The translations under genes were made by a program, and so were the position numbers. A stretch of DNA of 44,146 nt. Source: a virus. Its lineage: Duplodnaviria > Heunggongvirae > Uroviricota > Caudoviricetes. The stretch is taken from the IMG/VR virus record IMGVR_UViG_2698536573_000002. One strand, written 5' to 3'. Below the pieces are notes generated by a model. That model was not told the DNA's origin and ran no database searches. It worked only from the letters and a program-made list of their open reading frames with translations. Shown here in pieces: positions 24,724-44,146 of this stretch. Positions within the stretch are counted from its first letter, which is position 1; each line of letters opens with the position of its first letter.

Positions 24724-24799
24724 TGGTGGCCCCTACCGGATTTGAACCGATGACCGTGCGATTATGAGTCGCCTGCTCTAACCACTAAGCTAAGGGGCC
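24724..24799 (-). tRNA. tRNA with anticodon CAT, ileX/ileY-like (tRNA-Ile2 type; Met not excluded)
   Basis: 76-nt cloverleaf: acceptor GGCCCCT/AGGGGCC, D-arm GCTTAGTGGTTAGAGC, anticodon loop CTCATAA, T-arm GGTTCAAATCC, encoded CCA. Confidence 0.8.
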
Positions 24800-29973: not shown

Positions 29974-30082
29974 CAGATTTCTCCGGTTTAACCAGGGCGG
30001 GTATCGCTCGGTTTTGGGTATAACCTTAGGAAATTTTTTCCCACCTGTAAAGCACTTTTTATATAAATCTATAATTATATAT
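29974..30082 (-). repeat. ~109-bp promoter-bearing repeat, copy 2
   Basis: One mismatch vs copy 1 over ~105 bp; -35 tgtaaa at 30046-30051, -10 acctta at 30023-30028 (plus-strand coordinates). Confidence 0.85.
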
Positions 30083-30143
30083 TTATAGATTTTCCGATAT
30101 TCCCGGTGCCTACAAATCACCAAAACAGCTCAAAATGACACTT

Positions 30144-30521
30144 TCATTCTCTTCTCTTTTTCAAGTAGTCGACAACATACGCCCTGGCTTTTGCCAGCTT
30201 CCGGCGATACTGTCTGAGACTAAGAGAAAGGGCGTGGGCTTTATCAATATGCGGTGCATTTATGTCGAGGCCCCGAATCTCCCACGCCCCGTATTCAATT
30301 CGGACAACCAGCGCCGCAGTCTCATCAACTACCGTGAGGGCCGTCACCGCTCCCTCGATACTGGTTTCCAGTGAGTCATTTGGTGCGCCGCCCCCTCCGG
30401 TAAACTGGCAACGCGTAACCATCATCATTTCTAACATCGACGCGAAACCGCTACGGGCGTTGCAGCCATTGCGCACCCACAGCGCCCATAGCTCAAACAA
30501 GCTATCCAGATCGCGTCTCAC
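30144..30521 (-). CDS. putative Q-like antitermination protein
   Basis: 125 aa, GTG start overlapping upstream stop (GTGA); N-terminal LFELWALWVRNG resembles Q of 82/21 type as I recall it; last gene of early operon, followed by a promoter repeat. Confidence 0.4.
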   Translation of the reverse strand: MRRDLDSLFELWALWVRNGCNARSGFASMLEMMMVTRCQFTGGGGAPNDSLETSIEGAVTALTVVDETAALVVRIEYGAWEIRGLDINAPHIDKAHALSLSLRQYRRKLAKARAYVVDYLKKRRE

Positions 30522-30524
30522 TGT

Positions 30525-30857
30525 TCAGATCTCCCGTATCGTGACGGGATAAAGCGCCTCTACCTGCTTTTTCTTCATGATGTAGACGTCTGTTCGCACA
30601 CCTTTAGTGTCGACACAATCAATCGTCCCATCGTCATAAAACACCATGAAATCAAGTTTATAAACGACACCACCTGGCAGATGAAAAGGCACCTGCATAA
30701 GAAACGTCACAACGCGGCCAGCTTTTCTCAGTAGCTTCAGTTCGCAGTAGTAATCAGCCTCTTTTTTGCTATCAAAAGCGATATCATCGACAACCGTTTT
30801 TTTATTGCCGTATTTGCTTTTTCTGGTCGCTGGTTTGCGAAAGCCGGTATATCTCAT
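30525..30857 (-). CDS. DUF1064-family phage protein
   Basis: 110 aa with YGNKKTVVDDIAFDSKKEADYYCELKLL motif. Confidence 0.55.
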   Translation of the reverse strand: MRYTGFRKPATRKSKYGNKKTVVDDIAFDSKKEADYYCELKLLRKAGRVVTFLMQVPFHLPGGVVYKLDFMVFYDDGTIDCVDTKGVRTDVYIMKKKQVEALYPVTIREI

Positions 30858-31261
30858 TTGGTATCCCCTGGTACTTCACCAAGACTAAGATCAAACCCAA
30901 TTTCGTCTTTAACTGACTGCGGCAACAGCTCCCACGTCTGCGCACACAAAAATTCATCGGTGCCATAACGCTCAACAAAGCGAGCACAATTACTCAGGGG
31001 AGGGTGACGAACGGCAATATGCGGAGGCACACGCCCACCACCAGGCACAACACCGCGATGATGTGGTGCGCACAACCCAAAGCTATGGAAGTGGCAATTC
31101 TCATCAACGCTGCCGTAATCAGGATCGTGATGCAGCTCCGTCCACAGCTCTGGATTATCAATTTCACGGCCATCAATAATGCAAGCTATGCAACCCACGT
31201 GAGTGAGCACCGCTTGTATATAAAGTTTCTCTTTCTTCGTTGGTGTACGTCCGTTCATCAA
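30854..31261 (-). CDS. Cys/His-rich putative zinc-binding protein (possible HNH-like nuclease)
   Basis: 135 aa; GCIACII ... ELHHDPDYG ... NCHFHSFGLCAPHHRG. Confidence 0.3.
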   Translation of the reverse strand: MMNGRTPTKKEKLYIQAVLTHVGCIACIIDGREIDNPELWTELHHDPDYGSVDENCHFHSFGLCAPHHRGVVPGGGRVPPHIAVRHPPLSNCARFVERYGTDEFLCAQTWELLPQSVKDEIGFDLSLGEVPGDTK

Positions 31262-31491
31262 CGCCCCTTACCATTGATAAAGAGGTTGAACTCGTTAATT
31301 AACTGGACATACATGCTTCTGGCCGCGTAGTTCTTTGCCAGCTCTTTACGGGATGAGATCCCGCAAAACTCACGCAGAATCACAGAGGCCTCAGAACTGT
31401 TTGAAATGTTCTTCCCTGTTTTACTGGTCAGAAAGCGCCAGAATTGGGGATTCTGGCAATGCATCGCAGCACCGCGAACATAACCACTCAT
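31258..31491 (-). CDS. hypothetical protein
   Basis: 77 aa ORF in early operon. Confidence 0.25.
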   Translation of the reverse strand: MSGYVRGAAMHCQNPQFWRFLTSKTGKNISNSSEASVILREFCGISSRKELAKNYAARSMYVQLINEFNLFINGKGR

Positions 31492-32003
31492 TGATGGCCC
31501 CCGTCATTCCAGGTGCTTTTCACCGTGCGGCTGCTTAAAAACCTGCCATCACGAGAAACAGACACATCTCGTTTACCCAACCTCATTTCACGGCGGTAAC
31601 ATTCAGAAAATGCCTCGTCCGGCAGCATATAAATGCGACGCTTCGCCTCCGAATCCAGAAGGGAACGGCTTGGAGTTACATATAAAAACGACTCATCAAT
31701 AGGGACAAAACCACGAGCAAGAATTGCTGGCAGAATGCCAGGAAGAACGCAGAAAACAGCTCCACGATGCAGCAACATCTGGTACTCCATGACCTCCGTT
31801 ATCCCCGTGACGACTGTTACGGTGTCACGTCTGTTACGGCTGGCAACCAGTCGCTGCACACGTCCAATTTTCTGCTCTACAGATAGACGTTTACTATCGT
31901 TATCAATATGATCGATAACAAATCCTTTAATCGTTTGATCAAGGTAGTGCACCACCTGCGATTGAATCTGGTGATTATCACCAAAGAAGGCCAGAATCAT
32001 CAT
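31488..32003 (-). CDS. hypothetical protein
   Basis: 171 aa ORF in early operon. Confidence 0.3.
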   Translation of the reverse strand: MMILAFFGDNHQIQSQVVHYLDQTIKGFVIDHIDNDSKRLSVEQKIGRVQRLVASRNRRDTVTVVTGITEVMEYQMLLHRGAVFCVLPGILPAILARGFVPIDESFLYVTPSRSLLDSEAKRRIYMLPDEAFSECYRREMRLGKRDVSVSRDGRFLSSRTVKSTWNDGGHQ

Positions 32004-32494
32004 TCCTCAAGCCTCCCAAGTGCTGAACGCCGGGCGTTGCTAATCTCCTTATGAATCAGCTCGATATCGCTGGAATCTTTATTCTTAAACTCCAGCACGG
32101 CAATCGCATCACGAACCTCTGAAACGGTTACGTGTGAGTGTTTCCAGCGAGCAATGAATCGCGGACCGCGTAGATTGCAACGCTCCGCAGGTATCCCCAG
32201 CTCAGAGAAAACCGCTTTCAGCCTTGATAAGCAGTTAACAGGGAGATTCCCTTTGATCTTGTTCTGCCGAACCGATGTGCCATCGCTACGCTGGCGCTGA
32301 CGTTCGGCAAAATCTGCCGCCCATTGCTGGACATTAATCCGGCCTTCCGAATACGCCACCAGCAGCGTCAGGTTATCCGCACGAGGGAATCTCTCGAAGC
32401 GATACCAGGCACCAATCAGTGATGACGTAAAGCCAAACTTTCTGGCAACACCAATTTGGCCTCCATTTTCATCAACCCACTCCTGAAAGGTCAT
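32000..32494 (-). CDS. HTH DNA-binding protein, first gene of leftward-reading early operon (Cro/CII-like role)
   Basis: 164 aa; N-terminal HTH-like GQIGVARKFGFTSSLIGAWYRF; divergent from CI-like repressor across operator region. Confidence 0.4.
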   Translation of the reverse strand: MTFQEWVDENGGQIGVARKFGFTSSLIGAWYRFERFPRADNLTLLVAYSEGRINVQQWAADFAERQRQRSDGTSVRQNKIKGNLPVNCLSRLKAVFSELGIPAERCNLRGPRFIARWKHSHVTVSEVRDAIAVLEFKNKDSSDIELIHKEISNARRSALGRLEE

Positions 32495-32512
32495 TTAACT
32501 AACTCCAGTTAA

Positions 32513-32629
32513 ACCACGATATGTGGTATTAAAACCACAAATCGTGAGTTTTTCAATGGGAAAACAAAAAATAACCTTCTATTTGTGGTCTACCTCTCGT
32601 CTTGCCGTGTGAAAACCACTAAATGTGGT
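32513..32629. promoter_or_regulatory. immunity-region operators, consensus ACCAC-N5-GTGGT
   Basis: accacgatatgtggt 32513-32527, accacaaatcgtgag 32534-32548 (imperfect), half-site gtggt 32585-32589, accactaaatgtggt 32615-32629, between divergent regulator genes. Confidence 0.6.
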
Positions 32630-32666
32630 AATGTATAAATAACCCCCCATTCACGATTGATGAGAA

Positions 32667-33329
32667 ATGAAAAGCAACGACGAGAACATCAAGAAAGAAA
32701 TAGGTCTGCGCATTCAGACTCTACGGAAACAATCCGGCATGACTGCCGGAGATCTCCAGCAAGTCACTGGAATAGGCTTAAGCACCTTGCAGAACTATGA
32801 GGCCGGATTAAGACAACCATCTATACCTGCCATCAAGAAAATCGCGCACGCCCTGAAAGCATCAGCGCCTTATATCGCGTGCTTAACAGATAACCCGTTC
32901 CCACCCCAGAATACTAACGCTCCTGTTATTCCTGGGCTTGTAGCTATAAAAAATGACATAGCATCGCACGCCGGAGAAAAGCCAGTGCTGGCGATAGAAC
33001 AGGAGATTCTACGAAGCAAGAACATCAACCCATCGTCTCTGTCTGTTCTCCAGAGCAACGATGAGCTAAAGCTAATGTCACCAACAATATCCCCTGGCTC
33101 CCAAGTCCTGATTAATACAGACGATACAGAGATTCATGAGGGGATCTATGCCCTTGAAGACAGAAATGGCCTGGTTGTTTTGAGGCACTGTAGAGTCATA
33201 CCGGGTGACAATGCTGTTATGCTGTCAACCGAAAGGGATGCTGAAATGAACACTAAGCATCTGAATAACGAGGAATTTAAGCGTTATAAAGTTCTTGGCC
33301 GCGTAGTTAGTGTTGTCAACTGGTTATGA
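32667..33329 (+). CDS. CI-like prophage repressor (XRE-type HTH with LexA/S24-like C-terminal domain)
   Basis: 220 aa; N-terminal HTH (LRKQSGMTAGDLQQVTGIGLSTLQNYEAG), C-terminal domain with Ser/Lys candidates (LMSPT ... KVLGRVV). Confidence 0.65.
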   Translation: MKSNDENIKKEIGLRIQTLRKQSGMTAGDLQQVTGIGLSTLQNYEAGLRQPSIPAIKKIAHALKASAPYIACLTDNPFPPQNTNAPVIPGLVAIKNDIASHAGEKPVLAIEQEILRSKNINPSSLSVLQSNDELKLMSPTISPGSQVLINTDDTEIHEGIYALEDRNGLVVLRHCRVIPGDNAVMLSTERDAEMNTKHLNNEEFKRYKVLGRVVSVVNWL

Positions 33330-33371
33330 TACACAGCACGGCGAAAGCCGTGCATTTCTACGCTCAAAAAA

Positions 33372-33386
33372 ACCACGCTTTGTGGT
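33372..33386. promoter_or_regulatory. additional ACCAC-N5-GTGGT operator downstream of repressor gene
   Basis: accacgctttgtggt, perfect half-sites. Confidence 0.5.
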
Positions 33387-33421
33387 TTTGACAACATGAA
33401 AAAGTATAAAAGAGGCTACGC

Positions 33422-33796
33422 ATGGAATTACATACAGCCAATAAAAACGAAACTCTGATCACTGCTGGAATCGAAATCCAAGCGTTGAACATAGCGATTG
33501 AGTGTATGTTATGCCAACTCATTGATAATGAGAAAGATATCGACTGGATAGAATCTATCCTTCATCTGGCATCAGAACAAAAAGTCTGCCTCAAAACGGC
33601 CTTACAATACGATGTGCCAGCGATATCGAAGCTGTGCCAGCCATTGATGGCATATAACAGGGCTATTATTTCTGTATGCCTCATGATTCTCGATGAAAAC
33701 ACCCCTCTTAGCGACCGCTCAGAAGCTGCTCTAACCCTCTCACGTAAACAGCGACAGCTAGCAAATCAACTGATATCAACGATAGCTGACCTCTGA
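33422..33796 (+). CDS. hypothetical protein adjacent to repressor gene
   Basis: 124 aa, RBS AAGAGG 7 nt upstream; followed by hairpin at ~33802-33819. Confidence 0.4.
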   Translation: MELHTANKNETLITAGIEIQALNIAIECMLCQLIDNEKDIDWIESILHLASEQKVCLKTALQYDVPAISKLCQPLMAYNRAIISVCLMILDENTPLSDRSEAALTLSRKQRQLANQLISTIADL

Positions 33797-33820
33797 CTGC
33801 AAGCGGGCTAACGCCCGCTT

Positions 33821-33930
33821 ATATGATTATAGATTTATATAATTATATAAAACACTTTTCATCCGCCAAAAAGTTGGTTATGCTTACCTCATTCTATAAA
33901 TATAGATTTATAGAATTATATAATCAAACA
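33821..33930. repeat. clustered AT-rich palindromic motifs upstream of parA (candidate centromere/operator)
   Basis: tatgattatagatttatataattatataa and tataaatatagatttatagaattatataa; same core as in the three promoter repeats. Confidence 0.5.
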
Positions 33931-33946
33931 CATGGAGTCTCGACAA

Positions 33947-34600
33947 ATGACTATATCTGTAGGTATTTTCAACGGAAAAGGCGGCGTAACCAAATCAACC
34001 ATTGCTCGTGCTTTAGCAGTTGCTTATGCAAAGGCTGGCTGGAATGTATGCCTGATCGATATGGATGTGCTTAACGGAACGGTAACGCGTTGGGTACAAC
34101 GCAGAATGGCCAACAATATCGAACCTGCAATCGCGGCGCAGCCGTGCGGCACGCCATCACAAGTCCAGAAAATCATCGAATCAGAAGTATACGACCTGGT
34201 TATCGTTGATGGCGGTGCCTACGCATCTGAATCAGTACCGAAGCTCTCTGAATTTCTGGATATGGTTATTTTGCCAACCAGATTCTCTACCGATGACCTG
34301 GAAACCACCGTTAACACAGCTCACGGCATCGTTAAAAAGGGTGTACCAATCAAGAAAATTTGCATGGTGTTTTCCGGCGCGGCTGAAAACGAAGCTGACT
34401 ATATTGAAGCCCAAGAGTACCTGGCTAATACGCCATACTTTGTTGTCGATAAGTACATTCCCCACAAGCCAGCTCTGAGCAAAGCTCAGGATAAAGGCTT
34501 AAGCCTCATTGAGTGCTCATACGTTGCGCCACGCAAAAAAGCAGACGACGTTATTCAGGGGATTATCAACCAGCTTGAGGCTCTGACTACTGCCGCGTAA
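33947..34600 (+). CDS. ParA/ParF-type partition ATPase
   Basis: Deviant Walker A GIFNGKGGVTKST; start at second ATG (GGAG 9 nt upstream); ORF from 33932. Confidence 0.8.
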   Translation: MTISVGIFNGKGGVTKSTIARALAVAYAKAGWNVCLIDMDVLNGTVTRWVQRRMANNIEPAIAAQPCGTPSQVQKIIESEVYDLVIVDGGAYASESVPKLSEFLDMVILPTRFSTDDLETTVNTAHGIVKKGVPIKKICMVFSGAAENEADYIEAQEYLANTPYFVVDKYIPHKPALSKAQDKGLSLIECSYVAPRKKADDVIQGIINQLEALTTAA

Positions 34601-34643
34601 TATATAATTATAGTTTTATAGATTTATATAAGAGAGGATACAC

Positions 34644-34892
34644 ATGGCCGCACCATCAAAACCACCAAAGAAGAACAGCAAAGGCGTACCGCCATCGATC
34701 GAACAACCGCAGGTTTTCGACCCGACTGAAACGCCAGCCAGAACCAAATCAGGTGGGGCACAAATGGCGTTTAACGTCGACCCTGAATTTAAACGCGAGT
34801 ACAAAACGTTCGCCAGCTCAATGGATATGTCATTGAAAGAAGTGCTAACAAAATCTTTTGAGTTACTCAAGGCTCAATACAACCAGAAGTAA
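34644..34892 (+). CDS. ParG-like ribbon-helix-helix partition protein
   Basis: 82 aa, unstructured basic N-terminus then RHH-like MAFNVDPEFKREYKTFASSMDMSLKEVL; RBS GAGAGGA. Confidence 0.55.
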   Translation: MAAPSKPPKKNSKGVPPSIEQPQVFDPTETPARTKSGGAQMAFNVDPEFKREYKTFASSMDMSLKEVLTKSFELLKAQYNQK

Positions 34893-34954
34893 GAGAAGGT
34901 GACGGCCTCCAGCGCCAACTGTTGGCCGTAGCGACACAACAAGGGGAATTTGTT

Positions 34955-35104
34955 ATGTCCGAGCAACAATATACACGGTTACTGAAAACTCGTCTAACCG
35001 ACCTCAAACGGCTGCAAGCTGGTCGCTTATTTGCCCTGCTATCCACCAGGCCAGCATGGGTACGTGAAGCAGTTCTGAAAGGCTTAATGCGCTCCAGCGT
35101 TTAA
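34955..35104 (+). CDS. hypothetical small protein downstream of par genes
   Basis: 49 aa from internal ATG with AGGGGA RBS. Confidence 0.25.
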   Translation: MSEQQYTRLLKTRLTDLKRLQAGRLFALLSTRPAWVREAVLKGLMRSSV

Positions 35105-35112
35105 ATTCAACC

Positions 35113-35136
35113 ATAAAAAAGGCCCCCGAAGGGGCC
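35113..35136 (-). terminator. intrinsic terminator (minus-strand orientation)
   Basis: ggcccc-cgaa-ggggcc hairpin followed by U6 on minus strand, directly after small ORF 35143-35265. Confidence 0.5.
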
Positions 35137-35142
35137 TAATCG

Positions 35143-35265
35143 CTACTTGCTGCTAATGTTTATCGTCACATTCAGAGCGTTATCAGTAATCTTCCAACCC
35201 TCTCCATGTGGCGTAAACAAAGCCCCAGTAACAACGATAAAAATACACATGTAGTATTTTTTCAT
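35143..35265 (-). CDS. small hydrophobic peptide (40 aa)
   Basis: MKKYYMCIFIVVTGALFTPHGEGWKITDNALNVTINISSK; RBS AAGGG; own terminator. Confidence 0.35.
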   Translation of the reverse strand: MKKYYMCIFIVVTGALFTPHGEGWKITDNALNVTINISSK

Positions 35266-35655
35266 TGTGTGGCCCTTACAGGCCGTTTCACGGCATCCCC
35301 ACCGACGAAAATGACGCGAGAGCAAGCACGCTGTTTGTGCCTGCGTGGTACGGCAAGTGGATAATCCTTTCCTGAAAGTCAGTGCCCGGGTGCGAATCGG
35401 CGGAAAGGCCCCAAGCCATATTACACGTCATACCCTTCATAATGAAGGAATAAAAAACGCTTTTATTACATGAGATTACACGTAAATAAGTTAAAAACCT
35501 TCATTTTGCATGAGCTAATGAGCTAAATTTTTTTATATGAATAGTGGACTATTCACCTCAGTTAGGTAAGAATGTAGTTGCTGTTTGTGCTTGCGTGGTT
35601 GTATTAGTACAACGACGTTATGCTGAAAGGACCGCGAATCCGATCAGCACGAAAG

Positions 35656-35685
35656 AACCGTCCTCAATAGGGCGGTTTTTTTGTT
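35656..35685 (+). terminator. intrinsic terminator (plus-strand orientation)
   Basis: aaccgtcc-tcaata-gggcggtt followed by T8. Confidence 0.45.
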
Positions 35686-35695
35686 TCTTCACTCA

Positions 35696-36235
35696 TTAAA
35701 ACAGTCCAAGACCTGTTAATGGCTTCTGATAATCTCGATTATTCATATCAGCGCCGTTATCGACCCAATTTCTATATGCTTCATCGCAACAATACATTAC
35801 AGCAGTTGGAGTATCTGGGATGCCGCCCCCAAATGAGAATCCCATTGAGCTAATGCTAACTCTTTCTAATGGCCTATTTCTCAATGCTTCAAACCCCTTG
35901 CTATTAAAGTAACGCAGCATCAGAGGTAAAAGGTTATCCTCGTCCTGACTGATTGTTCCAGGGAAAAAGTAGTAACCATAACGGTTAAATTCGGGAATAA
36001 GATTTTCTACCAATGACATGAAATTCACTGGAGTAATATTAAGGGCTGTGAAAGCACCAAAAAGGGCGTCAACTGTTAATACAGACTGCCCGTTCTCTAT
36101 CTTTGTCCATGCGTTTGGTGTTTTTCCAGCAGCTTGAGCCAGTACTCCTTGATGCACACCTCTTTCTAGCCTAAGTTCTTTTATGATCATTAGGTGAATT
36201 GTTGAAAAACATGAGTTTTTTGACTGTTCAATCAT
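35696..36235 (-). CDS. XRE-type HTH protein with uncharacterised C-terminal domain
   Basis: 179 aa; HTH IKELRLERGVHQGVLAQAAGKTPNAWTKIENGQ; RBS GGGGA. Confidence 0.45.
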   Translation of the reverse strand: MIEQSKNSCFSTIHLMIIKELRLERGVHQGVLAQAAGKTPNAWTKIENGQSVLTVDALFGAFTALNITPVNFMSLVENLIPEFNRYGYYFFPGTISQDEDNLLPLMLRYFNSKGFEALRNRPLERVSISSMGFSFGGGIPDTPTAVMYCCDEAYRNWVDNGADMNNRDYQKPLTGLGLF

Positions 36236-36372
36236 TTTTTATCCCCATATTGAATTTTTTCTTTGTTCCCAACTTTAACAAAACACCACAACTTAGGAAT
36301 ATATAGTTCCTTAAATGAATCATACATTCCCACCTTCGGTATATCAAGAAAATTAAAAGCTCGGCATTCAAA

Positions 36373-36387
36373 CCCACACTATGTGGT
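36373..36387. promoter_or_regulatory. ACCAC-N5-GTGGT-like operator upstream of antirepressor operon
   Basis: cccacactatgtggt (9/10 half-site match). Confidence 0.45.
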
Positions 36388-36419
36388 TGTCTCTGTTAAA
36401 ATCCCGCCGTATTGACATA

Positions 36420-36521
36420 AATGCGCCATTGGTGGACACTTTCCGAGCCGTAGCAAAATCTACGGTCGGGATTGGAACCCCGATAATCATCATGGCGCAT
36501 ACCGCGTTAGCGGTTTTTTTA
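36420..36521 (+). ncRNA. candidate small regulatory RNA (c4-like) upstream of antirepressor operon
   Basis: TTGACA at 36412-36417; terminator accgc-gtta-gcggt + T7 at 36501-36520; short elements complementary to leader near 36603-36634. Confidence 0.3.
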
Positions 36522-36685
36522 TGCGTAAAGCACTGCTACACCCAAATTATGGTGGGGCGTGCGGGGGAGTCGTAAGACTCGCCGGATTCCATGGTGACCG
36601 GTAGTTCCAACCCTGTACGTCTCACCACCCAATGATTGGAACCAGACGGTGGTGAGTATCCTTAACCTTTAAGGGAACTATCACC

Positions 36686-36877
36686 ATGACAAACCTACCC
36701 CATGACTATTACGTCAACCTCGTAAAGATCCTTCTCAAGAAAGCCTCATACGCCGATAAATTCCGCCTGGCTGAAATCATCGAGCGCGAAGCTATGCGCA
36801 TCGCCAGCAACGATAACGCTGTTTCTGTCGCAAAAATCTCCCTCGTAACCAAAGTAGTTATGGGAGGTGCAAAATGA
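36686..36877 (+). CDS. small leader protein translationally coupled to antirepressor (icd-like position)
   Basis: 63 aa; stop TGA overlaps ant ATG (ATGA); RBS AAGGGA. Confidence 0.45.
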   Translation: MTNLPHDYYVNLVKILLKKASYADKFRLAEIIEREAMRIASNDNAVSVAKISLVTKVVMGGAK

Positions 36878-38055
36878 AAACGCTTCCGACCGTTAACACC
36901 CTACAGCCTATCCTGCATAACCAGCTCCCCGTTATCACTACTGAACTACTGGCGCAATTGTATGGAACCGAGCGCCAACGTCTGACAAACAATTTCAATA
37001 GAAACAAGGAACGTTTTATAGAAGGTAAACACTTTTTTAGGATAGAAGGTAAAGAGTTACGAGAGTTGAAGAACAAAAACTCTTTAAGAGTTCCTGTGAG
37101 AGTAGTTAACGAACCATCTTTAAGAGGGTTACAAATTCCCCCGAAAGTTCGCTCCCTCATCCTCTGGACAGAACGCGGGGCTGCACGTCACGCCAAAATG
37201 CTTGAAACTAACCAAGCGTGGGATGTGTTCGAACGGCTGGAAGACAGCTACTTCAACCAGAACGCACAAACGGCCGCGACCGTAACCGTCTCACCAAACA
37301 ATGCTCGTGAGGTTGTCGATACGCTCAACGCCAAACCAATGTATTACGTTAAGGTGTGCAACAACGAGCCACTCACAACCTCAGCCGATGTAGCCCAGGC
37401 ATTCAGCACCACAAACAATTCCATCGTTATGGCCATCGATGCATTACGCATTCCTCGCACAGCTGCGGCACGTCATTTCTTTAAAGAGCAACGACCGCTG
37501 GAAGGAAGCGACCGCGAAATAACAATCTATCGCATGACAAAAGACGGATTTACCTTGCTCATGGAAAGTATCGACGGTCCAGGCGTGAAGGATATCAAGC
37601 TGGCCTACATTGAAGCCTTTAACGCTATCAGCAGCGTGTTAAAGGCAGAATACGAGCGAATGCTATACAACCGACTGTATCAGGAAACAAAGATTATCCG
37701 AACGGCAACAGAACATCATCGGCTATTAACGGAACCAAACTACCGCAAGACACTAATCAAAGAGTTTGACAAGGCGACGGAGAAAACTAAAGCGGCACTA
37801 AATCTACCAACAATGACTAAAGATGATGTGATATCAGCCTTACTTCTTGATCTGCTCAGAAACGTCAGAGCACTTATCAGTTTTGACGAAAACCTGAATC
37901 CTCAGCTCAAGCTACTACCACCGACAGGCAAAGTAGTCGACCAAGCAGATCACAACAGCATACTCAGCGTACTGGATGCAAACCTGCCAGCCAGGACACT
38001 ACAGGAGCTGATAAAAATATCTGCGGATAAACTGGCCGCAGGTGCAAAACCATAA
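36874..38055 (+). CDS. antirepressor (ORF6N/KilA-N-like N-terminal domain plus Rha-like domain)
   Basis: 393 aa; N-terminal LPVITTELLAQLYGTERQRLTNNFNRNKERF and central MYYVKV...TIYRMTKDGFTLLM blocks. Confidence 0.6.
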   Translation: MKTLPTVNTLQPILHNQLPVITTELLAQLYGTERQRLTNNFNRNKERFIEGKHFFRIEGKELRELKNKNSLRVPVRVVNEPSLRGLQIPPKVRSLILWTERGAARHAKMLETNQAWDVFERLEDSYFNQNAQTAATVTVSPNNAREVVDTLNAKPMYYVKVCNNEPLTTSADVAQAFSTTNNSIVMAIDALRIPRTAAARHFFKEQRPLEGSDREITIYRMTKDGFTLLMESIDGPGVKDIKLAYIEAFNAISSVLKAEYERMLYNRLYQETKIIRTATEHHRLLTEPNYRKTLIKEFDKATEKTKAALNLPTMTKDDVISALLLDLLRNVRALISFDENLNPQLKLLPPTGKVVDQADHNSILSVLDANLPARTLQELIKISADKLAAGAKP

Positions 38056-38057
38056 AA

Positions 38058-38090
38058 CAAAGCGCCCGATTTGGGCGCTTCTTCAATTCT
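38058..38090. terminator. bidirectional intrinsic terminator between convergent genes
   Basis: agcgccc-gattt-gggcgct flanked by T-rich tracts on both strands. Confidence 0.5.
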
Positions 38091-38725
38091 TAATATTTCG
38101 GTGTAATCAGTAGCGATACATGCCCTGATTTGTCACGAGAAACGTAATACTCGCCTCTCTTAGTCTTGAACTCAGCTTTCTGCATATCTGATTTAACAAT
38201 CTGCTCTAACTGCGCAATCACGGTGTCTCTTTCACTTGACGCATCCAAGACTTCAACTGCTACGGCCATAGAAAGCAAGGAATCAGAGTTAGGCTTGGAT
38301 ACTCGCCATAATAACTCAGAAATCTTCCCATCCTTATCAACTCTAGCCCGACCGTTAACAGATGAGTTGATGGCAAATTCAACGGTGTTATTACCTTGTT
38401 TAACAGACTTAATTCTTATAGTGGAGGTGGCTTTTCCTGATGTAGCGATGCCTTCAAGGTCATCATTATATAACTGCTTAAACTTATCTACGGTCACACC
38501 ATCAAAAGCAGCTCCGGTAGTAGCCGCAGTGTTGGAGTCTTCTGGGATCAAGGTCACAGCCGCAAGAGTATTAACAACTACAAAAGTAGCAATCCCGAGA
38601 AAGCCACTCACTAAAACAGCTTTGAACTTACCACCAGAAGACGAGGCACATTGTTTCCGATATGCGCCACGAACTACGAAGAAACACAAAATCAGGCTAA
38701 TAATAAACGCCACCAGCATCCCCAT
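38090..38725 (-). CDS. membrane protein with two N-terminal TM helices
   Basis: 211 aa; hydrophobic segments then soluble domain; RBS AAGGAG. Confidence 0.45.
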   Translation of the reverse strand: MGMLVAFIISLILCFFVVRGAYRKQCASSSGGKFKAVLVSGFLGIATFVVVNTLAAVTLIPEDSNTAATTGAAFDGVTVDKFKQLYNDDLEGIATSGKATSTIRIKSVKQGNNTVEFAINSSVNGRARVDKDGKISELLWRVSKPNSDSLLSMAVAVEVLDASSERDTVIAQLEQIVKSDMQKAEFKTKRGEYYVSRDKSGHVSLLITPKY

Positions 38726-39290
38726 AGAAATCTCCTTTTAGATATAAGGGTAAAGCAATATCGTATTAGATCTTCCTTAAGACACAACCCCCCCTCCCCC
38801 CATACAGGGTGCCCTTTACCGGAGTTCCGGCCCCTTCTCAAAAGCATCAAAAAAAGCTCGAGATCGAGTACCGGAACTCATGCCACCAGATAGCTCCACA
38901 TCGTTTCCAATGCTTCGCCGCCGTGTGCGCCCTGTGGCCCACAATCATGCCATTGGTCGTCTGATATACCTTCTTCTGCTCATTGAGCACAGGCGAGTTG
39001 TCGCACTCCTGCCTTTCTCAGACTCGACTTAGTTTAGATCGCTGTTCCTGGCTTGCGTCAGCACACTTTCCCCTTGTACGCATACCCGCGCGCCACTTCG
39101 CCCAAAAACACCGAACCCAACGAAGTAGCAAAGACAACGACGCGAGCGTGAGTCTGAAACGTGCACCAGTAAAAAAGGGGTTGCAGGCGCAAAAAGATTT
39201 GATTATCTTTAGACGCAAGAAAGCCGCCCCAATCAAGAGGTGTCTTTTTAAATCCAGCCTACCAAGCAAGATTTAAATTTCAGACTGAAA

Positions 39291-39320
39291 ACCGCCCGGC
39301 AAGGCGGTTTTTGTCTTTCT
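39291..39320 (+). terminator. intrinsic terminator (plus strand)
   Basis: aaccgcc-cggcaa-ggcggtt followed by TTTTTGTCTTTC. Confidence 0.5.
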
Positions 39321-39360
39321 GGCGCTTACATTACACCACCATAAAACGATCCGTAAAGGA

Positions 39361-39633
39361 TCATTTGATCTCTTGTTCCAATTCTGACGACACTTTAACC
39401 TTTTCCCATACAAGGGTTTGCAGCCTTAACAGAATCGCATCTTTATCAAGGTGTGAAAGATCCTTAACCATATCGTCAAATGACAGAACGCGAATGGCCA
39501 TCTCAATGACCCTCGGCGGCTCCCCCTTCTCATATCGCTTATATGTAGCCAACGATATCCCAAATTCTTCGGCGGCTCGCTCCTGCGTCCAGTTCATCCC
39601 ACGACGCCATAATTTCAATTCATAACCCGTCAT
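39361..39633 (-). CDS. XRE-family HTH protein
   Basis: Start at MTGYEL (GGAGG 5 nt upstream); LKLWRRGMNWTQERAAEEFGISLATYKRYEKGE. Confidence 0.55.
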   Translation of the reverse strand: MTGYELKLWRRGMNWTQERAAEEFGISLATYKRYEKGEPPRVIEMAIRVLSFDDMVKDLSHLDKDAILLRLQTLVWEKVKVSSELEQEIK

Positions 39634-39696
39634 AGCATCCTCCTCGCACAATATTAACACTCGCAAAGTGTCAAAATGACACTTTGCGTATTGTGT

Positions 39697-40077
39697 TTAC
39701 TTAACGAGGAATAAAAATGGTTTATTGTTCGGCGGTGTAATCGGAGCTGGCTCGCTTTTGCTCATGCGATCAGTGTACCAGGCCAGCTCCTTGTCAAAGT
39801 AAGCCTGATTAAAATAGGCAATGAATGTAGTTTCAAATCCATAACGACCGCTAATACGCAGCATCTGATTGCCGTTCTCTGTTTCCAGATATACCTGGGC
39901 ACGTTCCTGATTCTCCTTCAGCCAGGTTAAAGCCTCATCGCACGAGGACACACGATACTCATCATCGTAGCCGTCATCGATGCGGCTTGAAGAAGAACGG
40001 CAAATCACGCCAACAGAACCAGCCAGGATAGTTTGAATTTTAAGGAAAGCGTTTTTGCGGATTTTAATCATGCTCAT
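39697..40077 (-). CDS. hypothetical protein, first gene after repeat copy 3
   Basis: 126 aa; ATG at 40077 closes the conserved repeat. Confidence 0.4.
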   Translation of the reverse strand: MSMIKIRKNAFLKIQTILAGSVGVICRSSSSRIDDGYDDEYRVSSCDEALTWLKENQERAQVYLETENGNQMLRISGRYGFETTFIAYFNQAYFDKELAWYTDRMSKSEPAPITPPNNKPFLFLVK

Positions 40078-40187
40078 CGGGTTATCTCCGGTTTAACCAG
40101 GGCGGGTATCGCTCGGTTTCGGGTATAACACTAGGAAATATTTTCCCACCTGTAAAGCACTTTTTATATAAATCTATAATTATATAA
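40078..40187 (-). repeat. ~109-bp promoter-bearing repeat, copy 3
   Basis: About 95 percent identical to copies 1 and 2; same -35/-10 spacing. Confidence 0.85.
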
Positions 40188-40240
40188 TTCCATGAGCACA
40201 AAAAAGCCCCTTTGCAACAGGGGCTTATCATTCGTTCTGA

Positions 40241-40540
40241 TCAGATGTTAAACGCTATTCGTTTTCCTGTGGGAAGCTCAACATCCAGGCTTAATTTGCC
40301 TCCCATAGCTTCAACGTAACGCTTTAATGTCGCCAGCTTTAAATCATTTCCGCGCTGCTCCAGCTTTGTTACTGCTGGCTGGCTTATACCCATCGCCTCA
40401 GCAACCTGCTTTTGTGATAACTGGAGTTCTTCACGCATCATCTGCAAGCCGACCTCAAGAATCATCTCATCTGCCATTTCTTTAATTCGCGCCTGGCTTT
40501 CCGGTGAACGGCTGGCAATCACCTCATCTAATGTTCTCAT
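40241..40540 (-). CDS. HTH antitoxin (HigA-like)
   Basis: 99 aa; LQLSQKQVAEAMGISQPAVTKLEQ and C-terminal LATLKRYVEAMGGKLSLDV. Confidence 0.55.
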   Translation of the reverse strand: MRTLDEVIASRSPESQARIKEMADEMILEVGLQMMREELQLSQKQVAEAMGISQPAVTKLEQRGNDLKLATLKRYVEAMGGKLSLDVELPTGKRIAFNI

Positions 40541-40893
40541 TACTTGCTCTCCAGTGTGTTCAGATGTGCTGCAAACTCATCCTCAGCTATACGCACCAGT
40601 TTTTTATAAAACCGCTTATCGTTACTTTTGTCTCCTGCACAAAGAACGATAGCCCGGCGAATCGGATCGAACGCATAAAAGGCTCTTATCGGACGGCCAG
40701 AAAACTGAACGCGAAGCTCTTTCATATTTTTGTACCGAGAACCTTTTACGGTATCGGCATATGGCCTGGGTAACTCAGGTCCGTAAACCTGTAGCTTTTT
40801 CAAATCAGCCAAAACCTTTTCCTGAAGAGCGTCTTCTTGCTCATTTAGCCAGTCGTCAAATCGCTGGCTAAAAAGTACCGTCCACATGCTCAA
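40540..40893 (-). CDS. RelE/HigB-family toxin (Gp49-like)
   Basis: 117 aa; toxin-first order with overlapping stop/start; TVKGSRYKNMKELRVQFSGRPIRAFYAFDPIRRAIVL. Confidence 0.55.
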   Translation of the reverse strand: MSMWTVLFSQRFDDWLNEQEDALQEKVLADLKKLQVYGPELPRPYADTVKGSRYKNMKELRVQFSGRPIRAFYAFDPIRRAIVLCAGDKSNDKRFYKKLVRIAEDEFAAHLNTLESK

Positions 40894-41131
40894 TCCTATA
40901 ACCTGTAGTTTATATCACTAACTATATAACCTGTGGGTTATAATTTCAAGAAAAACGGGGCCATTTAACATAATGGACGTTATCGGCACCACCGGATCAC
41001 CGTTCATTGTCGGATCTAAAAAATCCGCTCAAAAGATCATGTTTTCCTGGGCGTTTTCCACTGTTTTTTATGTTGCTTATTTGTTAATGAAATCTCGTTT
41101 TCAGTTTCGCCTCATTTTCGACACGAAAGCC

Positions 41132-41422
41132 CTATTTTTGTGACTTTACTCCTGGCATATGGACTTCCCAGCGACGAATCCCCATAGCTGCGCAAAAATC
41201 AGCCACATAATTCAATCCCGCCCATTCGCGGATACCACCACGGGCTTTTTCAATGAAAACGGCAATCCCTTTTTTATTGAGAGCAAAAAGCCGCCAGCTT
41301 TTTGTCACTTCGTCCTGGGTAGCCACAACACAAGTGAAAGCTCCCATGCGATACAGGTCCAAGAACTCTTTGCGTGTTTTGCGTACAAGTTCCATAACAA
41401 ACCTCATATTTGCATGTTTCAA
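41132..41422 (-). CDS. hypothetical protein (second gene of two-gene module beside ori)
   Basis: 96 aa; start overlaps upstream gene stop. Confidence 0.35.
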   Translation of the reverse strand: MKHANMRFVMELVRKTRKEFLDLYRMGAFTCVVATQDEVTKSWRLFALNKKGIAVFIEKARGGIREWAGLNYVADFCAAMGIRRWEVHMPGVKSQK

Positions 41423-41706
41423 ACATCTGTTTTGTTATCAATGAAGATTAACCCTAACCCAGCGAAGTAACACAGCAGCGCCCAGGCTGCATACGGAATG
41501 CTGGATCTGGATGTGGACTCCTTTAACATCTGCCAGTTGCGAACATTGCGACTATCTTTTAAGCCTAGTTTTTTGGCCAACTGCGAGCCGCTCATTCCGG
41601 TCAGGCCAATGACTGCCCGAACTTCTCCACATGTAGGAGATTCCCATTCATCCGCTTTTTTTAAACAAGCCGGATTCAACATTTTTAAAACAGTATCTTT
41701 ATCCAT
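41419..41706 (-). CDS. small HTH-like protein with C-terminal TM helix
   Basis: Start at third ATG (GGAG 6 nt upstream); LTGMSGSQLAKKLGL then IPYAAWALLCYFAGLGLIFI. Confidence 0.35.
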   Translation of the reverse strand: MDKDTVLKMLNPACLKKADEWESPTCGEVRAVIGLTGMSGSQLAKKLGLKDSRNVRNWQMLKESTSRSSIPYAAWALLCYFAGLGLIFIDNKTDV

Positions 41707-41759
41707 AACCATCTCCATTTATTATATCTACGATGGTAGGAAATCTTTTCCTATGTGGC

Positions 41760-42349
41760 AATAGAAATTTACTACATTGCGTATAAGACAAGTTTTCTAT
41801 GTCTAATAGAAAAGGATGTTTCTTACGTTTTGTCGCGTTCTGATTGCTACTGTGTGCGTATTTATCGACGTTTATTGATAAGGTCCGTCCCTTCCTCCTG
41901 CAAAGCCCGGCCGTAGGCCTTATTTCGGCCTTATATAAATTGATTTTGTATAGTTCGAAACGCGCCGTTTCGAAAAGGATGATCAGGCTGCTCCATGCCT
42001 CCGGCAAGTGCCGGAGGAGGTATATTTGAGCGTAGCGACTCGAACCGGCGCGAGCTTTAGCTCGCTGCAAGGGCGAACATATTCACAGGCAAAGCCTGCG
42101 TAAGTTAAATAAAGAAAGTCTTAATAAAAGAAAGTGATTTTGCATTTATTTGTTTAGTGCATCTATTATAAAAAACCATTTGCATATACATATCAAAACT
42201 GTGGATAACTTTATTATCCGATGCCTGTAAAGGCGATATTTTTGCTGTGTTCAGGTTTAGAGAAAATTAATTTAGACTATTTTTTGAACAGATATTTTAT
42301 TGCGACGTAGATAATCCTCCGGTAAAACCGGATTCATCATTCAGGTGGG
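41760..42349. other. putative plasmid replication origin region downstream of repA
   Basis: AT-rich; DnaA box TTATCCACA (revcomp of 42200-42208); palindromes ttcgaaacg-cgc-cgtttcgaa and cctccggca-ag-tgccggagg near 41950-42015. Confidence 0.45.
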
Positions 42350-43198
42350 TTAATGTTGGAGTGATTTCCAGGTCTTTCTTAGCCTGTTATAACGCTGCTC
42401 AACGAGGGATCGTAAATATGCAAGGTCAGCACCTGGATACATGCCATCAGCAAATTCCTGGCTAACCTCTCTAGTGATTTGATGACGAAGTTCGGCCTCT
42501 CCCTTTTCCCGGACAAGACGCGCAGCTCTCTCCGCTGCTTTCTGTTTTGCCTTTATCTCTCTGGCCGTCTTCCTCTGGCGCCATACATTCTCCATCTGCT
42601 CCTGAATAACAATACGCTTATAATCAGCCTCCGTTATCGCTTTTTTAAGCCGTTCGCTATTCTTCGCATTGAAGTAATTAAGTTTCTGGCTAACCGCACG
42701 TCTCCATGCTTGTTCAGTAATACCAACGGTTTCCAGCAGTTGATCACGAATCTCTATTTTCGCTGGCCAATACTGTTTATTCACCCGATCCCAGCGACGT
42801 TCATAATCAATAAAACCTAACGCTTTCAGTTGCGACAACGCCCTTGTACAGCGCGTTATAGACTTGTTCCCAGCTTCGGATACGGTAGACAGGCCGCAAA
42901 AATCAGCCAACGCCTCAGCACTAGCCAGAACCCGCTTAGAAATGATGTTTACATGGTGCAAAATCGCAGCGATCACAGCATTAATCGCCCGACGACGATG
43001 CTCGTTTATCCGGCGCTTCCGCTCTGACGGTTGATTAACGTAGAACGCAACCTCACACGTAAGATCACGCCCATTAATGCGCTGTAAAGCATCAGATAAC
43101 ACCAGCGGCAGCTTGTGCGTATGGTGCTTTGGAGGCTGGAACTCCGGCGACAAATTACAAACGTAAGCTGAACGTAGAGACGGCATTGGTCTATCCAT
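42350..43198 (-). CDS. repA: replication initiation protein, IncFII RepA1 family
   Basis: Contains KSITRCTRALSQLKALGFIDY block resembling R100/R1 RepA1 as I recall it; ORF open to 43327, internal ATG at 43198 gives ~283 aa; upstream part is leader targeted by antisense RNA. Confidence 0.7.
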   Translation of the reverse strand: MDRPMPSLRSAYVCNLSPEFQPPKHHTHKLPLVLSDALQRINGRDLTCEVAFYVNQPSERKRRINEHRRRAINAVIAAILHHVNIISKRVLASAEALADFCGLSTVSEAGNKSITRCTRALSQLKALGFIDYERRWDRVNKQYWPAKIEIRDQLLETVGITEQAWRRAVSQKLNYFNAKNSERLKKAITEADYKRIVIQEQMENVWRQRKTAREIKAKQKAAERAARLVREKGEAELRHQITREVSQEFADGMYPGADLAYLRSLVEQRYNRLRKTWKSLQH

Positions 43199-43242
43199 AT
43201 GTTCGCTCTTGCGTCCACGGAAAACCAACGTATAATGGGAGT

Positions 43243-43320
43243 TGTCGAGGCGCCCATGGTTAGTTGTTGGTTTTCCGTGGATGTCGCAAGAAGCCCGCAG
43301 ATTTATCTGCGGGCTTTTTG
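43243..43320 (+). ncRNA. antisense RNA to repA leader (CopA/RNAI-like)
   Basis: Plus-strand promoter TTGCGT-16bp-TATAAT (43209-43236); terminator gcccgcag-atttat-ctgcgggc + T-run at 43293-43323; fully within repA leader. Confidence 0.55.
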
Positions 43321-43362
43321 TTTCCATATCTGGTCACTTTCCAACCAGACACCCACAATCAT

Positions 43363-43379
43363 AACCACGTTACGTGGTT
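43363..43379. promoter_or_regulatory. ACCAC-N5-GTGGT palindrome in repA promoter region
   Basis: aaccacgttacgtggtt, perfect, ~36 bp upstream of repA leader ORF start. Confidence 0.5.
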
Positions 43380-43508
43380 TTGAGAGAACTCTACCACAAC
43401 ACTTTCGGTCATGCACGAAGTCTCTCACTGATCGAACGATAATCCACCAGTAAAAGGATCTAAATTGGATCTCGTTTTGCGAGCATCATACTACTGGCCT
43501 AACTCCAG

Positions 43509-44063
43509 TCAATGATTCCCAGCCGGAAACCTGCGGTAAAGCGTGGATAAAGTAACATCGAAGATAATCGCTATCCGCTTACGTGAAACACCATTCGCAA
43601 TAAGCCTTCCGATCTGTTCCCATTGCTCTGGTGACAGCTTTGAGCGGCGTCCTCCGATCCTGCCGTTAGCCCTTGCCACCGCCAATCCTGCACGCGTTCT
43701 TTCAATCATATTTTCCCGCTCCATCTCTGCGACTGCACTCAGCATCGTGTAGGCAAAGCGGCCAATTGAAGTGCTAATTTTTATCCCTTCCGTAATCGAA
43801 ATAAACTCAATGTTGTTTGATAAAAAATGGTTAAGTAAATCAACAAGATGAATCAGGGAACGCCCCATTCGGTCCAGCTTCCAGACAATAACCGTATCGC
43901 CCGGCCGTAACACCTTAAGTAGCTTATCAAGTCCTGGTCGTTTTGATTTAGCACCGGATATTTTATCTTCAAAAATCCGGTCACATCCTAAACTCCTGAG
44001 CGCCTCCAGTTGTAATTCCAAATTCTGGTCAAAAGTTGACACCCTCGCATAACCATATTGCAT
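43509..44063 (-). CDS. serine recombinase, DNA invertase (Gin/Cin/Pin/Hin family)
   Basis: 184 aa; GYARVSTFDQ catalytic Ser, VWKLDRMGRS, AEMERE, GRIGGR, C-terminal HTH LSTLYRR. Confidence 0.8.
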   Translation of the reverse strand: MQYGYARVSTFDQNLELQLEALRSLGCDRIFEDKISGAKSKRPGLDKLLKVLRPGDTVIVWKLDRMGRSLIHLVDLLNHFLSNNIEFISITEGIKISTSIGRFAYTMLSAVAEMERENMIERTRAGLAVARANGRIGGRRSKLSPEQWEQIGRLIANGVSRKRIAIIFDVTLSTLYRRFPAGNH

Positions 44064-44131
44064 ACTTTCTAAACCGCGATTGTTGCTAAAAGCGGGAAAA
44101 AATATCGTTCAGACGACACAGAGGCAATTCG

Positions 44132-44146
44132 CAAAAACCTCGGTTT
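44132..44146. other. gix/cix-like invertase crossover half-site at window edge
   Basis: caaaaacctcggttt; reverse complement AAACCGAGGTTTTT matches gix core as I recall it. Confidence 0.5.

Follow-up and report, generated by a model that had tools for sequence, protein, structure and literature searches.

A probable P1-type immI module on a phage-plasmid of Escherichia coli and Yersinia: two small RNAs upstream of a leader gene and an antirepressor gene

The stretch of DNA analyzed in this study (44,146 nucleotides (nt), hereafter the window) is the IMG/VR virus record IMGVR_UViG_2698536573_000002, assigned to the Caudoviricetes. Between positions 36,373 and 38,055 it carries the operon of an antirepressor-family protein (Ant), in which the ant gene is preceded by an open reading frame (ORF) of 63 amino acids (aa), here called ORF63, and by two structured RNAs, an IsrK-like RNA and the antisense RNA C4. 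The original prediction for this region, made from the letters of the sequence, had compared it to the c4-icd-ant logic of the immI region of phage P1. The features found at the locus are, in the direction of transcription:

36374 to 36386, no strand: operator-like palindrome CCACACTATGTGG, extended form ACCAC-N5-GTGGT
36412 to 36440, plus strand: predicted sigma-70 promoter with the -35 hexamer TTGACA (36412-36417), a 17-nt spacer and the -10 hexamer GACACT (36435-36440)
36447 to 36520, plus strand: IsrK / c4-a1b1 RNA of ~74 nt (Rfam isrK, RF01394, 70.2 bits at a gathering threshold of 50, E 3.8e-13)
36501 to 36520, plus strand: intrinsic terminator of the IsrK-like RNA, ACCGC-GTTA-GCGGT followed by a T-run
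36545 to 36632, plus strand: C4 antisense RNA gene (Rfam C4, RF01695, 84.3 bits at a gathering threshold of 45, E 2.8e-15)
36621 to 36656, plus strand: a2 hairpin with a 9-bp stem (CUCACCACC/GGUGGUGAG), -14.4 kcal/mol alone, the loop of which presents the element a2
36686 to 36877, plus strand: ORF63, 63-aa leader gene (PHROG 7886, E 2e-46)
36874 to 38055, plus strand: ant, encoding a 393-aa antirepressor-family protein with ORF6N and Phage_pRha domains
38059 to 38081, no strand: GC-rich hairpin at the end of the operon, called as a minus-strand terminator, its plus-strand T tail being weaker

The entire window was scanned with Rfam at gathering thresholds, and a second, permissive scan added sub-threshold matches. 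All 77 positions of the isrK model were matched at 36447-36520, whereas the c4-a1b1 model (RF03163; Weinberg et al., 2010) was matched at 36434-36486 with 38.2 bits in the permissive scan, below its gathering threshold of 46.7. The latter model also describes hairpins 1 and 2 with an a1 element in the second loop and thus the region of IsrK. The C4 match covers 88 nt and is located on the same strand as the ant operon, within its leader. Beyond isrK, c4-a1b1 and C4, no other Rfam RNA was found at the locus, the permissive scan included.

The IsrK-like RNA is predicted to fold into two hairpins (1 and 2), the second with a1 in the loop, followed by a single-stranded stretch holding the element b1 and by the intrinsic terminator hairpin. 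The terminator, which had been postulated before, was confirmed by reading of the sequence as well as by a terminator scan, and its helix is paired to 94.4% in 26 relatives, with a covariation score that was reached by 0 of 500 shuffles. The C4 RNA alone folds with -44.3 kcal/mol (z -4.57). From the homology with P1 c4, the mature c4 is predicted to span ~36551-36629, and in a three-way alignment its 5′ strand (AAUUAUGGUGGGGCGUG; AATTATGGTGGGGCGTG) is identical to that of P1 c4. The sequence CUCACCACC (36621-36629) is shared between two stems, as 3′ strand in the one that closes c4 and as 5′ strand in that of the a2 hairpin. The stem of this hairpin co-varies between the window and P1, where it reads CCUGCCACC/GGUAGCAGG (alignment read by eye). 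The original prediction had described this part as a structured leader, and its 9-bp hairpin is real, but the 88-nt C4 RNA had been overlooked. Judged by homology, the true antisense repressor is the c4 at 36545-36632, inside that leader.

The transcription start of the upstream RNA is placed at ~G36447. In the same three-way alignment TTGACA and GACACT of the window fall on the annotated -35 and -10 of the P1 promoter P1c4 (P51b). Both hexamers, the 17 nt between them and the spacing up to hairpin 1 have been preserved in a set of 67 unique upstream regions from related loci, which supports the assigned start, and the Rfam isrK model starts 7 nt past the -10. The TTGACA promoter of the original prediction is present, while the upstream RNA, given there as ~100 nt, would have a length of ~74 nt with this start. 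The element 'ccattggtgg' (36426-36435), which had been taken for a part of the RNA, falls into the spacer and the -10, upstream of the start; its match in the leader needs an indel and is probably due to chance.

The annotated P1 record shows the order C1 operator, promoters P2c4 and P1c4, a1, b1, c4 (77 nt), a2, b2, icd (73 aa) and ant1, with ant1 overlapping the stop of icd. The a1/b1 region of P1 is matched by c4-a1b1 with 51 bits and weakly by isrK with 35 bits, and a terminator hairpin lies 5′ of c4. As in P1 and P7, the window shows a promoter, a1, b1, a terminator, c4, an a2 element in a hairpin loop, a b2 element at the ribosome binding site (RBS) of a small ORF, and an ant gene which overlaps this ORF by 4 nt, and in all of them the prophage is a plasmid. 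By these matches IsrK, c4-a1b1 and the P1 a1/b1 region are different names of a single RNA. Rfam places isrK outside the C4 clan, though the isrK and c4-a1b1 models describe the same RNA.

Six short elements with the potential of pairing with each other were identified in the two RNAs and in the leader of ORF63:

36472 to 36478, plus strand: a1 (UUGGAAC), in the loop of IsrK hairpin 2; a sense copy of a2, complementary to a′
36487 to 36495, plus strand: b1 (UCAUCAUGG), single-stranded in IsrK; pairs with b′ over 9 bp including one G.U
36589 to 36597, plus strand: b′ (CCAUGGUGA), in the loop of c4 hairpin 2
36604 to 36610, plus strand: a′ (GUUCCAA), in the single-stranded c4 junction
36636 to 36642, plus strand: a2 (UUGGAAC), in the loop of the 9-bp hairpin
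36681 to 36688, plus strand: b2 (UCACCAUG), pairs with b′ over 8 bp and covers the ORF63 start codon

The element a′ is complementary to a1 and to a2 over 7 nt each. The repeat noted in the original prediction, GATTGGAACC at 36470-36479, returns without a mismatch at 36634-36643, and its core is complementary to 36604-36610. Since a1 and b1 have the same sense as a2 and b2, the upstream RNA would pair with c4 and cannot pair with the leader, so that the partner in the duplex formerly proposed between upstream RNA and leader is to be replaced by c4. The duplex of b1 and b′ has -12.2 kcal/mol, a value equalled by 14 of 500 shuffles, and that of b2 and b′ has -12.5 kcal/mol (19 of 500).

The pairings are carried by covariation. 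The Yersinia phage vB_YpM_41 is 89% identical to the window over the RNA region 36380-36700, and its a1, a′ and a2 have changed three ways, from UUGGAAC/GUUCCAA/UUGGAAC in the window to UUGGCGU/ACGCCAA/UUGGCGU. Its b′ (UCAUGAUGA) and b2 (UCAUCAUGA) have changed two ways. For a larger set, 120 IMG/VR loci sharing the c4 5′ strand were collected and reduced to 77 unique modules (within L004-L123), in which 13 types of a′ and 31 types of b′ occur in 39 combinations. A match of 7 Watson-Crick nt is present between the cognate a′ and a1 in 38 of these 39 and between the cognate a′ and a2 in all 39, compared with a mean of 3.9-4.0 nt for non-cognate pairings. For b′ the cognate match has a mean of 8.7 nt upstream and 10.3 nt downstream, the non-cognate match 6.2 and 6.7 nt. 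This covariation is the decisive sequence evidence for the a and b pairings, the duplexes of a single sequence being weak alone.

The a and b elements assort independently, and the a′ variant ACGCCAA, for instance, is combined with 8 or more different b′ loops. Such a pattern points to an exchange of the two halves of the module by recombination and to an immunity code of a combinatorial kind; as judged from these sequences, such an assortment with 39 combinations is the signature of heteroimmunity determinants.

ORF63 is a genuine gene. Compared with three homologues, the differences at the first, second and third codon positions number 9/4/28, 16/10/31 and 18/11/29, and it is this concentration of substitutions at third positions which identifies the ORF as coding. 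Its homologues form 39 clusters, are mostly exactly 63 aa long and are as little as 57-58% identical. They invariably share 4 nt with the gene that follows, be it an Ant with P22_AR_N, an ORF6N protein or, in a P4-like satellite, small ORFs. Upstream of them either isrK and C4 or the RNA sRNA-Xcc1 is located. In the window the junction to ant is ATGA (36874-36877), as the original prediction had stated, and an internal GGGAGG (36862-36867) lies 6 nt 5′ of the ant ATG. From this arrangement ORF63 is predicted to be translationally coupled to ant. It belongs to no Pfam family and gave no BLASTP alignment with P1 Icd. Its AlphaFold model is a confident three-helix structure (predicted local distance difference test, pLDDT, 84), for which Foldseek found no match in the PDB.

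The Ant protein contains the domains ORF6N (PF10543, residues 12-109, E 2e-21) and Phage_pRha (PF09669, residues 168-252, E 3.8e-12) and matches several anti-repressor PHROGs (best E 2e-59), in agreement with its earlier designation as a 393-aa antirepressor. It is unrelated to P1 Ant1, with a best BLASTP E of 3.9. Of the former comparison of the small ORF and ant to P1, the geometry of the coupling was borne out; the proteins themselves are not homologous to Icd and Ant1. The gene after c4 varies between the elements: P1-like elements have Icd and Ant, in most lambdoid prophages a Rha-type protein of 181-204 aa follows c4 without a gene in between, and the group of the window has ORF63 followed by an Ant of 380-393 aa. 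Candidate targets of Ant are a CI-like 220-aa protein (32667-33329) and a 179-aa helix-turn-helix (HTH) protein (35696-36235, minus strand) encoded next to the operon.

Three relatives of ORF63 are found in other surroundings. At L126:2501-2698, a homologue of 65 aa with 57-58% identity lies in a P4-like satellite context with an integrase, two AlpA genes and an AAA_25 primase-like gene as neighbours; small overlapping ORFs and no Ant follow, and no Rfam C4 or isrK match at gathering threshold was obtained there. In Erwinia tracheiphila (L124:2376-2460) and on a metagenome contig (L127:439-523), a match to sRNA-Xcc1 (RF02221) stands in place of isrK and C4 and precedes an ORF63-Ant pair of the P22_AR_N type. 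In both, the loop UUUCGUGAA of sRNA-Xcc1 faces UUCACGGAG at the ORF63 Shine-Dalgarno sequence, so by sequence sRNA-Xcc1 may be a c4-like antisense regulator.

The 14-kb region 30000-44146 of the window is 97-99% identical to E. coli and Yersinia plasmids of ~48-50 kb which encode RepA and ParA, and a matching plasmid (NZ_CP009073, 98.6% identical) is carried by E. coli ATCC 25922. Over 36200-38100, the locus shares 92-93% identity with the Yersinia myophages vB_YpM_39, 41 and 44. At least 99% identity to the RNA segment was found in 20 of 5,426 complete E. coli genomes, and some version of it in 125. These identities show the host element as a phage-plasmid of ~48 kb shared by E. coli and Yersinia.

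Taken together, the locus is very probably an immI module of the P1 type, that is, an RNA-controlled antirepressor operon on this phage-plasmid. By analogy with P1 and Gifsy-1, the promoter (-35 at 36412, start at 36447) would give rise to the 74-nt IsrK-like RNA which ends at 36501-36520 and bears a1 and b1. Transcripts reading through the terminator would include the c4 gene, from which, on the precedent of P1, RNase P would excise a stable c4 of ~77 nt, and the same transcripts would then hold a2 in the hairpin loop, b2 at the start codon of ORF63, ORF63 and ant. The c4 RNA would pair with a2 through a′ and with b2 through the b′ loop and block the initiation of ORF63. The ant start, which overlaps the ORF63 stop behind an internal Shine-Dalgarno sequence, would have no access of its own, Ant would not be made, and the prophage repressor would remain active. 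The IsrK-like RNA is likely to be a decoy and not a repressor, because its a and b sequences equal those of the mRNA targets. It would bind c4, not the mRNA, and could do so in trans in its short form as well as in cis, as a part of the read-through transcript, and the ratio of IsrK to c4 would decide on the translation of ORF63 and ant. The competition of a1/b1 and a2/b2 for c4 goes back to Citron and Schuster (1990), as quoted in the supplement of Weinberg et al. (2010).

What the window shares with P1 immI is, on this evidence, the RNA module and not the set of proteins. Unlike in P1 and P7, where Icd and Ant1/2 are encoded, ORF63 and an Ant of the ORF6N/Rha type are present, the a′ and b′ specificities are different, and a CCAC-N5-GTGG palindrome takes the place of the C1 operator (Op51).

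Several observations weigh against this interpretation. The -10 hexamer GACACT is weak, and a consensus promoter scan made no call at 36412-36440. The operator of the original prediction exists in the form of the operator-like palindrome CCACACTATGTGG, but it is centered ~67 nt 5′ of the start of IsrK, about halfway between the two divergent promoters, and does not overlap the core promoter. Taken singly, the duplexes (-8.8 to -12.5 kcal/mol) beat dinucleotide shuffles only modestly, 12-70 of 500 being as good. When mature c4 was cofolded with the leader or with IsrK in RNAcofold, no helix formed between the molecules (ddG, the difference in free energy, -1.1 kcal/mol); nested cofolding cannot represent loop-loop contacts, and loop-level duplexes were used instead. 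In P1 and most relatives b2 lies on the Shine-Dalgarno sequence, whereas the b2 of the window has 8 bp and lies on the start codon, a position which it also takes in a minority of the modules (L053, L119, L072 and the Yersinia phages). Finally, the Shine-Dalgarno sequence of ORF63 can be sequestered by a local hairpin independently of c4:

36649 to 36687, plus strand: alternative hairpin which sequesters the ORF63 Shine-Dalgarno sequence (AAGGGA, 36671-76) and the start codon

In this structure GGUGGUGAG (36648-36656), which otherwise pairs with CUCACCACC, is paired with the b2/start region. For 36615-36700 the RBS-sequestering hairpin is the minimum free energy (MFE) structure with -21.6 kcal/mol, and the fold with the a2 hairpin has -20.9, a difference of 0.7. 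Part of the silencing may therefore be structural.

A different account of the same kind of locus has been published for Gifsy-1 (Hershko-Shalev et al., 2016; PMC4825925). There, the isrK promoter drives read-through into the antirepressor gene anrP, and basal translation is off. With IsrK supplied in trans, translation of anrP increases more than 100-fold and transcription 8-fold, and a′ mutants are derepressed. Binding of Hfq and activation of the downstream antirepressor in trans by IsrK are known for Gifsy-1 only (PMC4825925). In this model the IsrK segment of the read-through mRNA locks it in cis in an inactive form, the short IsrK displaces the cis pairing in trans and opens the RBS, and the c4-shaped region is merely mRNA. 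The same paper names seqA of P4 as a structural homologue of IsrK and does not mention c4.

The Rfam models isrK (79 bits), c4-a1b1 (48 bits) and C4 (69 bits) are matched upstream of anrP, with C4 between isrK and anrP; by this match the Gifsy-1 locus holds a bona fide c4. As in the window, IsrK is terminated with read-through, and a1 and a′ lie at the same distances from the start (+26 to +32 and +158 to +164, in Gifsy-1 U26-U32 and A158-A164). The compensatory pairs G28-C162 and G31-C159 published for Gifsy-1 (positions of PMC4825925) form exactly the a1.a′ helix. Unlike in the window, the next gene downstream of c4 already encodes the antirepressor, and b2 covers the Shine-Dalgarno sequence of this gene; the coupled reading frame, 'orf45', reads through the c4 gene instead of being a separate conserved 63-aa gene. 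It starts at the A of AUGGUGGGGC in the c4 5′ strand and is located at 34210-34076 (minus strand) of the Gifsy-1 sequence (L129). Its nucleotide sequence is conserved and its amino-acid sequence is not (PMC4825925), as expected of an RNA gene.

For the window, a cis lock without a trans-acting c4 seems unlikely. It agrees with the MFE structure of the read-through RNA (36447-36700; z -4.68), in which a1 and b1 are paired in cis with a′ and b′, an analogue of 'structure A' of Gifsy-1, and the native-gel and reporter data from Gifsy-1 favor it. However, it leaves unexplained why a2 and b2 are present in every module and co-vary with a′ and b′, gives no account of a c4 fold conserved at the level of Rfam from P1 to this locus, and has no explanation for the stable processed RNA STnc1160, which arises 3′ of IsrK from the c4 region in Salmonella (PMC4825925). 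Moreover, the frame equivalent to 'orf45' is closed after 8 codons in the window (ATG 36549, TAA 36573), so this part of the Gifsy-1 model is inapplicable. The cis lock and the c4 acting in trans are not mutually exclusive.

A 95-aa protein of the 'Ash family' (PF10554, 26.1 bits) is encoded in some relatives, e.g., at L003:2712-2999 in vB_YpM_41, and its N-terminal 32 codons run through the c4 gene. By sequence the Ash protein and 'orf45' may be read-outs of the RNA gene, and the Pfam family Phage_ASH may partly be translated RNA of the c4/CI type.

Control by transcription termination has also to be considered, since a structure competing with the terminator is predicted upstream of c4:

36493 to 36509, plus strand: candidate anti-terminator hairpin (UGGCGC / GCGUUA), overlapping the 3′ end of b1 by 3 nt and the 5′ strand of the terminator

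In the immunity systems of P4 (CI RNA, seqA-seqC), a small processed leader RNA pairs with repeated sites up- and downstream and thereby keeps lytic or anti-immunity genes silent. The CA RNA anti-immunity system of N15 follows the same leader-RNA logic, with repeated sites upstream and downstream of the RNA. Both act by premature transcription termination, which for the window is a hypothesis only. Accordingly modeled, pairing of c4 with b1 would break the anti-terminator and so favor the terminator of IsrK, or Rho-dependent polarity would come into play, and c4 would limit its own synthesis and the transcription of ant. As the explanation of the locus, this is quite improbable. The hairpin is predicted in the window, in P1 and in most relatives, with 85.7% of cells paired in 26 sequences compared with 11-71% for slid controls, and the authors of the Gifsy-1 study raised the same idea. 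In Gifsy-1, transcription is also increased by IsrK in trans. Against it, the covariation of the hairpin is not significant (reached by 52 of 500 shuffles) and comes from a single co-varying pair (GC 21, AU 3, GU 1), and the overlap with b1 in the window is those 3 nt only. Genetics of P1 places the primary effect of c4 on icd translation, which also counts against it.

Very improbable is the form in which the module was first conceived, namely with the terminated upstream RNA (end at 36520) in the role of the c4-like repressor, pairing with the leader and blocking ORF63 and ant. A compact terminated RNA is indeed located 5′ of the operon and has a 10-nt element in common with the leader. This element has the same sense at 36470-79 and 36634-43, which makes mutual pairing impossible, and both copies are complementary to 36604-10, inside the Rfam C4 match. 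Furthermore, the upstream RNA has its homologues in the P1 a1/b1 region and in IsrK, an activator and not a repressor of the antirepressor in Gifsy-1. The P1 logic of the original prediction thus stands with regard to RNA homology and order of features, and its repressor has to be moved from the upstream RNA to c4. That the locus is a decayed or silent remnant with recognizable RNAs and a non-functional switch, as the weak -10 and the displacement of b2 from the Shine-Dalgarno sequence might suggest, can practically be dismissed. None of the elements is disrupted, and a and b change together between plaque-forming sister phages, vB_YpM_39 and vB_YpM_41 having been obtained as phage isolates. 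The genes ORF63 and ant are likewise undamaged and are conserved among plasmids with 90-99% identity in the 14 kb around the locus, and the RNA segment is kept in the 20 complete E. coli genomes mentioned above.

The immI region of P22 (mnt-arc-ant with the sar RNA) is comparable in that its antirepressor operon is under extra immunity control and adjoins a divergent repressor gene. In P22 the regulators are Arc and Mnt and sar lies opposite the RBS of ant, whereas the neighboring regulators of the window are HTH_3 proteins and the regulator RNA is sense-encoded upstream. A promoter scan found no convergent antisense promoter within 36373-38055, as a sar-like arrangement would have. The 179-aa HTH_3 protein is encoded divergently from the immI operon, with a promoter-like TTGATA-17-TATGAT at 36347-36319, and recalls Mnt by its position. 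It could repress the IsrK/c4 promoter locally, or be the protein on which Ant acts.

The motif of the operator-like palindrome was counted in the window:

517, 32514, 32616, 33373, 36374 and 43365, no strand: CCAC-N5-GTGG sites

These 6 copies compare with 0.29 expected, and all 6 are intergenic. Two of them precede the gene of the CI-like 220-aa repressor and a third is located shortly behind this gene, and in 3 of the 6 a TTGnnn hexamer resembling a -35 follows directly. The arms of CCACACTATGTGG are conserved in vB_YpM_41. From their distribution the sites look like a dispersed operator set for the CI-like repressor, which resembles the dispersed C1 operators of P1. The P1 C1 operator consensus was not matched with up to 3 mismatches, and there was no LexA box near the promoter, matches being at chance level. 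A second promoter overlapped by the operator (TTGTCT at 36387-92 or TGtTAAAAT at 36394-36402) is not claimed, as a convincing hexamer pair is missing.

Additional features were noted elsewhere in the window. A match to ryfA (35115-35413, minus strand; 134.7 bits at a gathering threshold of 80) is located between a ParA-like gene and the divergent HTH gene, and contains a small hydrophobic ORF (within 35143-35325, minus strand). In enterobacteria ryfA is the mRNA of a small toxin of the TimP type, and the locus may serve the phage-plasmid for post-segregational killing. Furthermore, a tRNA-Met (anticodon CAT; 24724-24799, minus strand), a gene of a 'toxin' PHROG (40540-40893, minus strand), whose counterpart in the Yersinia phages is annotated as HigB2, and a DNA invertase of the Hin/Cin type (43509-44063, minus strand) are accessory features of the phage-plasmid. 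The toxin gene is adjoined by a 99-aa ORF (40241-40540, minus strand) in the position of an antitoxin.

Beyond its role as a decoy, the a1/b1 (IsrK) RNA could be an attenuator which senses c4, as b1 overlaps the terminator-competing hairpin at 36493-36509; we put this forward tentatively and regard it as rather doubtful. If true, abundant c4 would base-pair with b1, and with the anti-terminator thus disrupted transcription would be made to terminate; more decoy would be produced, and the transcription of c4, ORF63 and ant would be off at high c4, while at scarce c4 read-through would replenish it. One common mechanism would then apply to P1-type, Gifsy-1 and P4-type systems, and a1 and b1, which the P1 record annotates as 'putative' c4 target sites, would gain a function. 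As a corollary, 'orf45' of Gifsy-1 and the Pfam family Phage_ASH would be read-outs of the c4 RNA gene.

The principle of the RNA switch is already known from P1 and is left unchanged; new is a member of this type with a different leader gene and a different antirepressor. In this respect the locus is a matter of correct filing and of cleaning up the annotation. In one RefSeq copy only protein-coding genes and no RNA gene are annotated at the locus, and ORF63 is called a 'hypothetical protein'. What appears there as intergenic DNA and hypothetical proteins would become a defined control point between lysis and lysogeny, on a phage-plasmid which is widespread in E. coli and Yersinia and is also present in the reference strain ATCC 25922.

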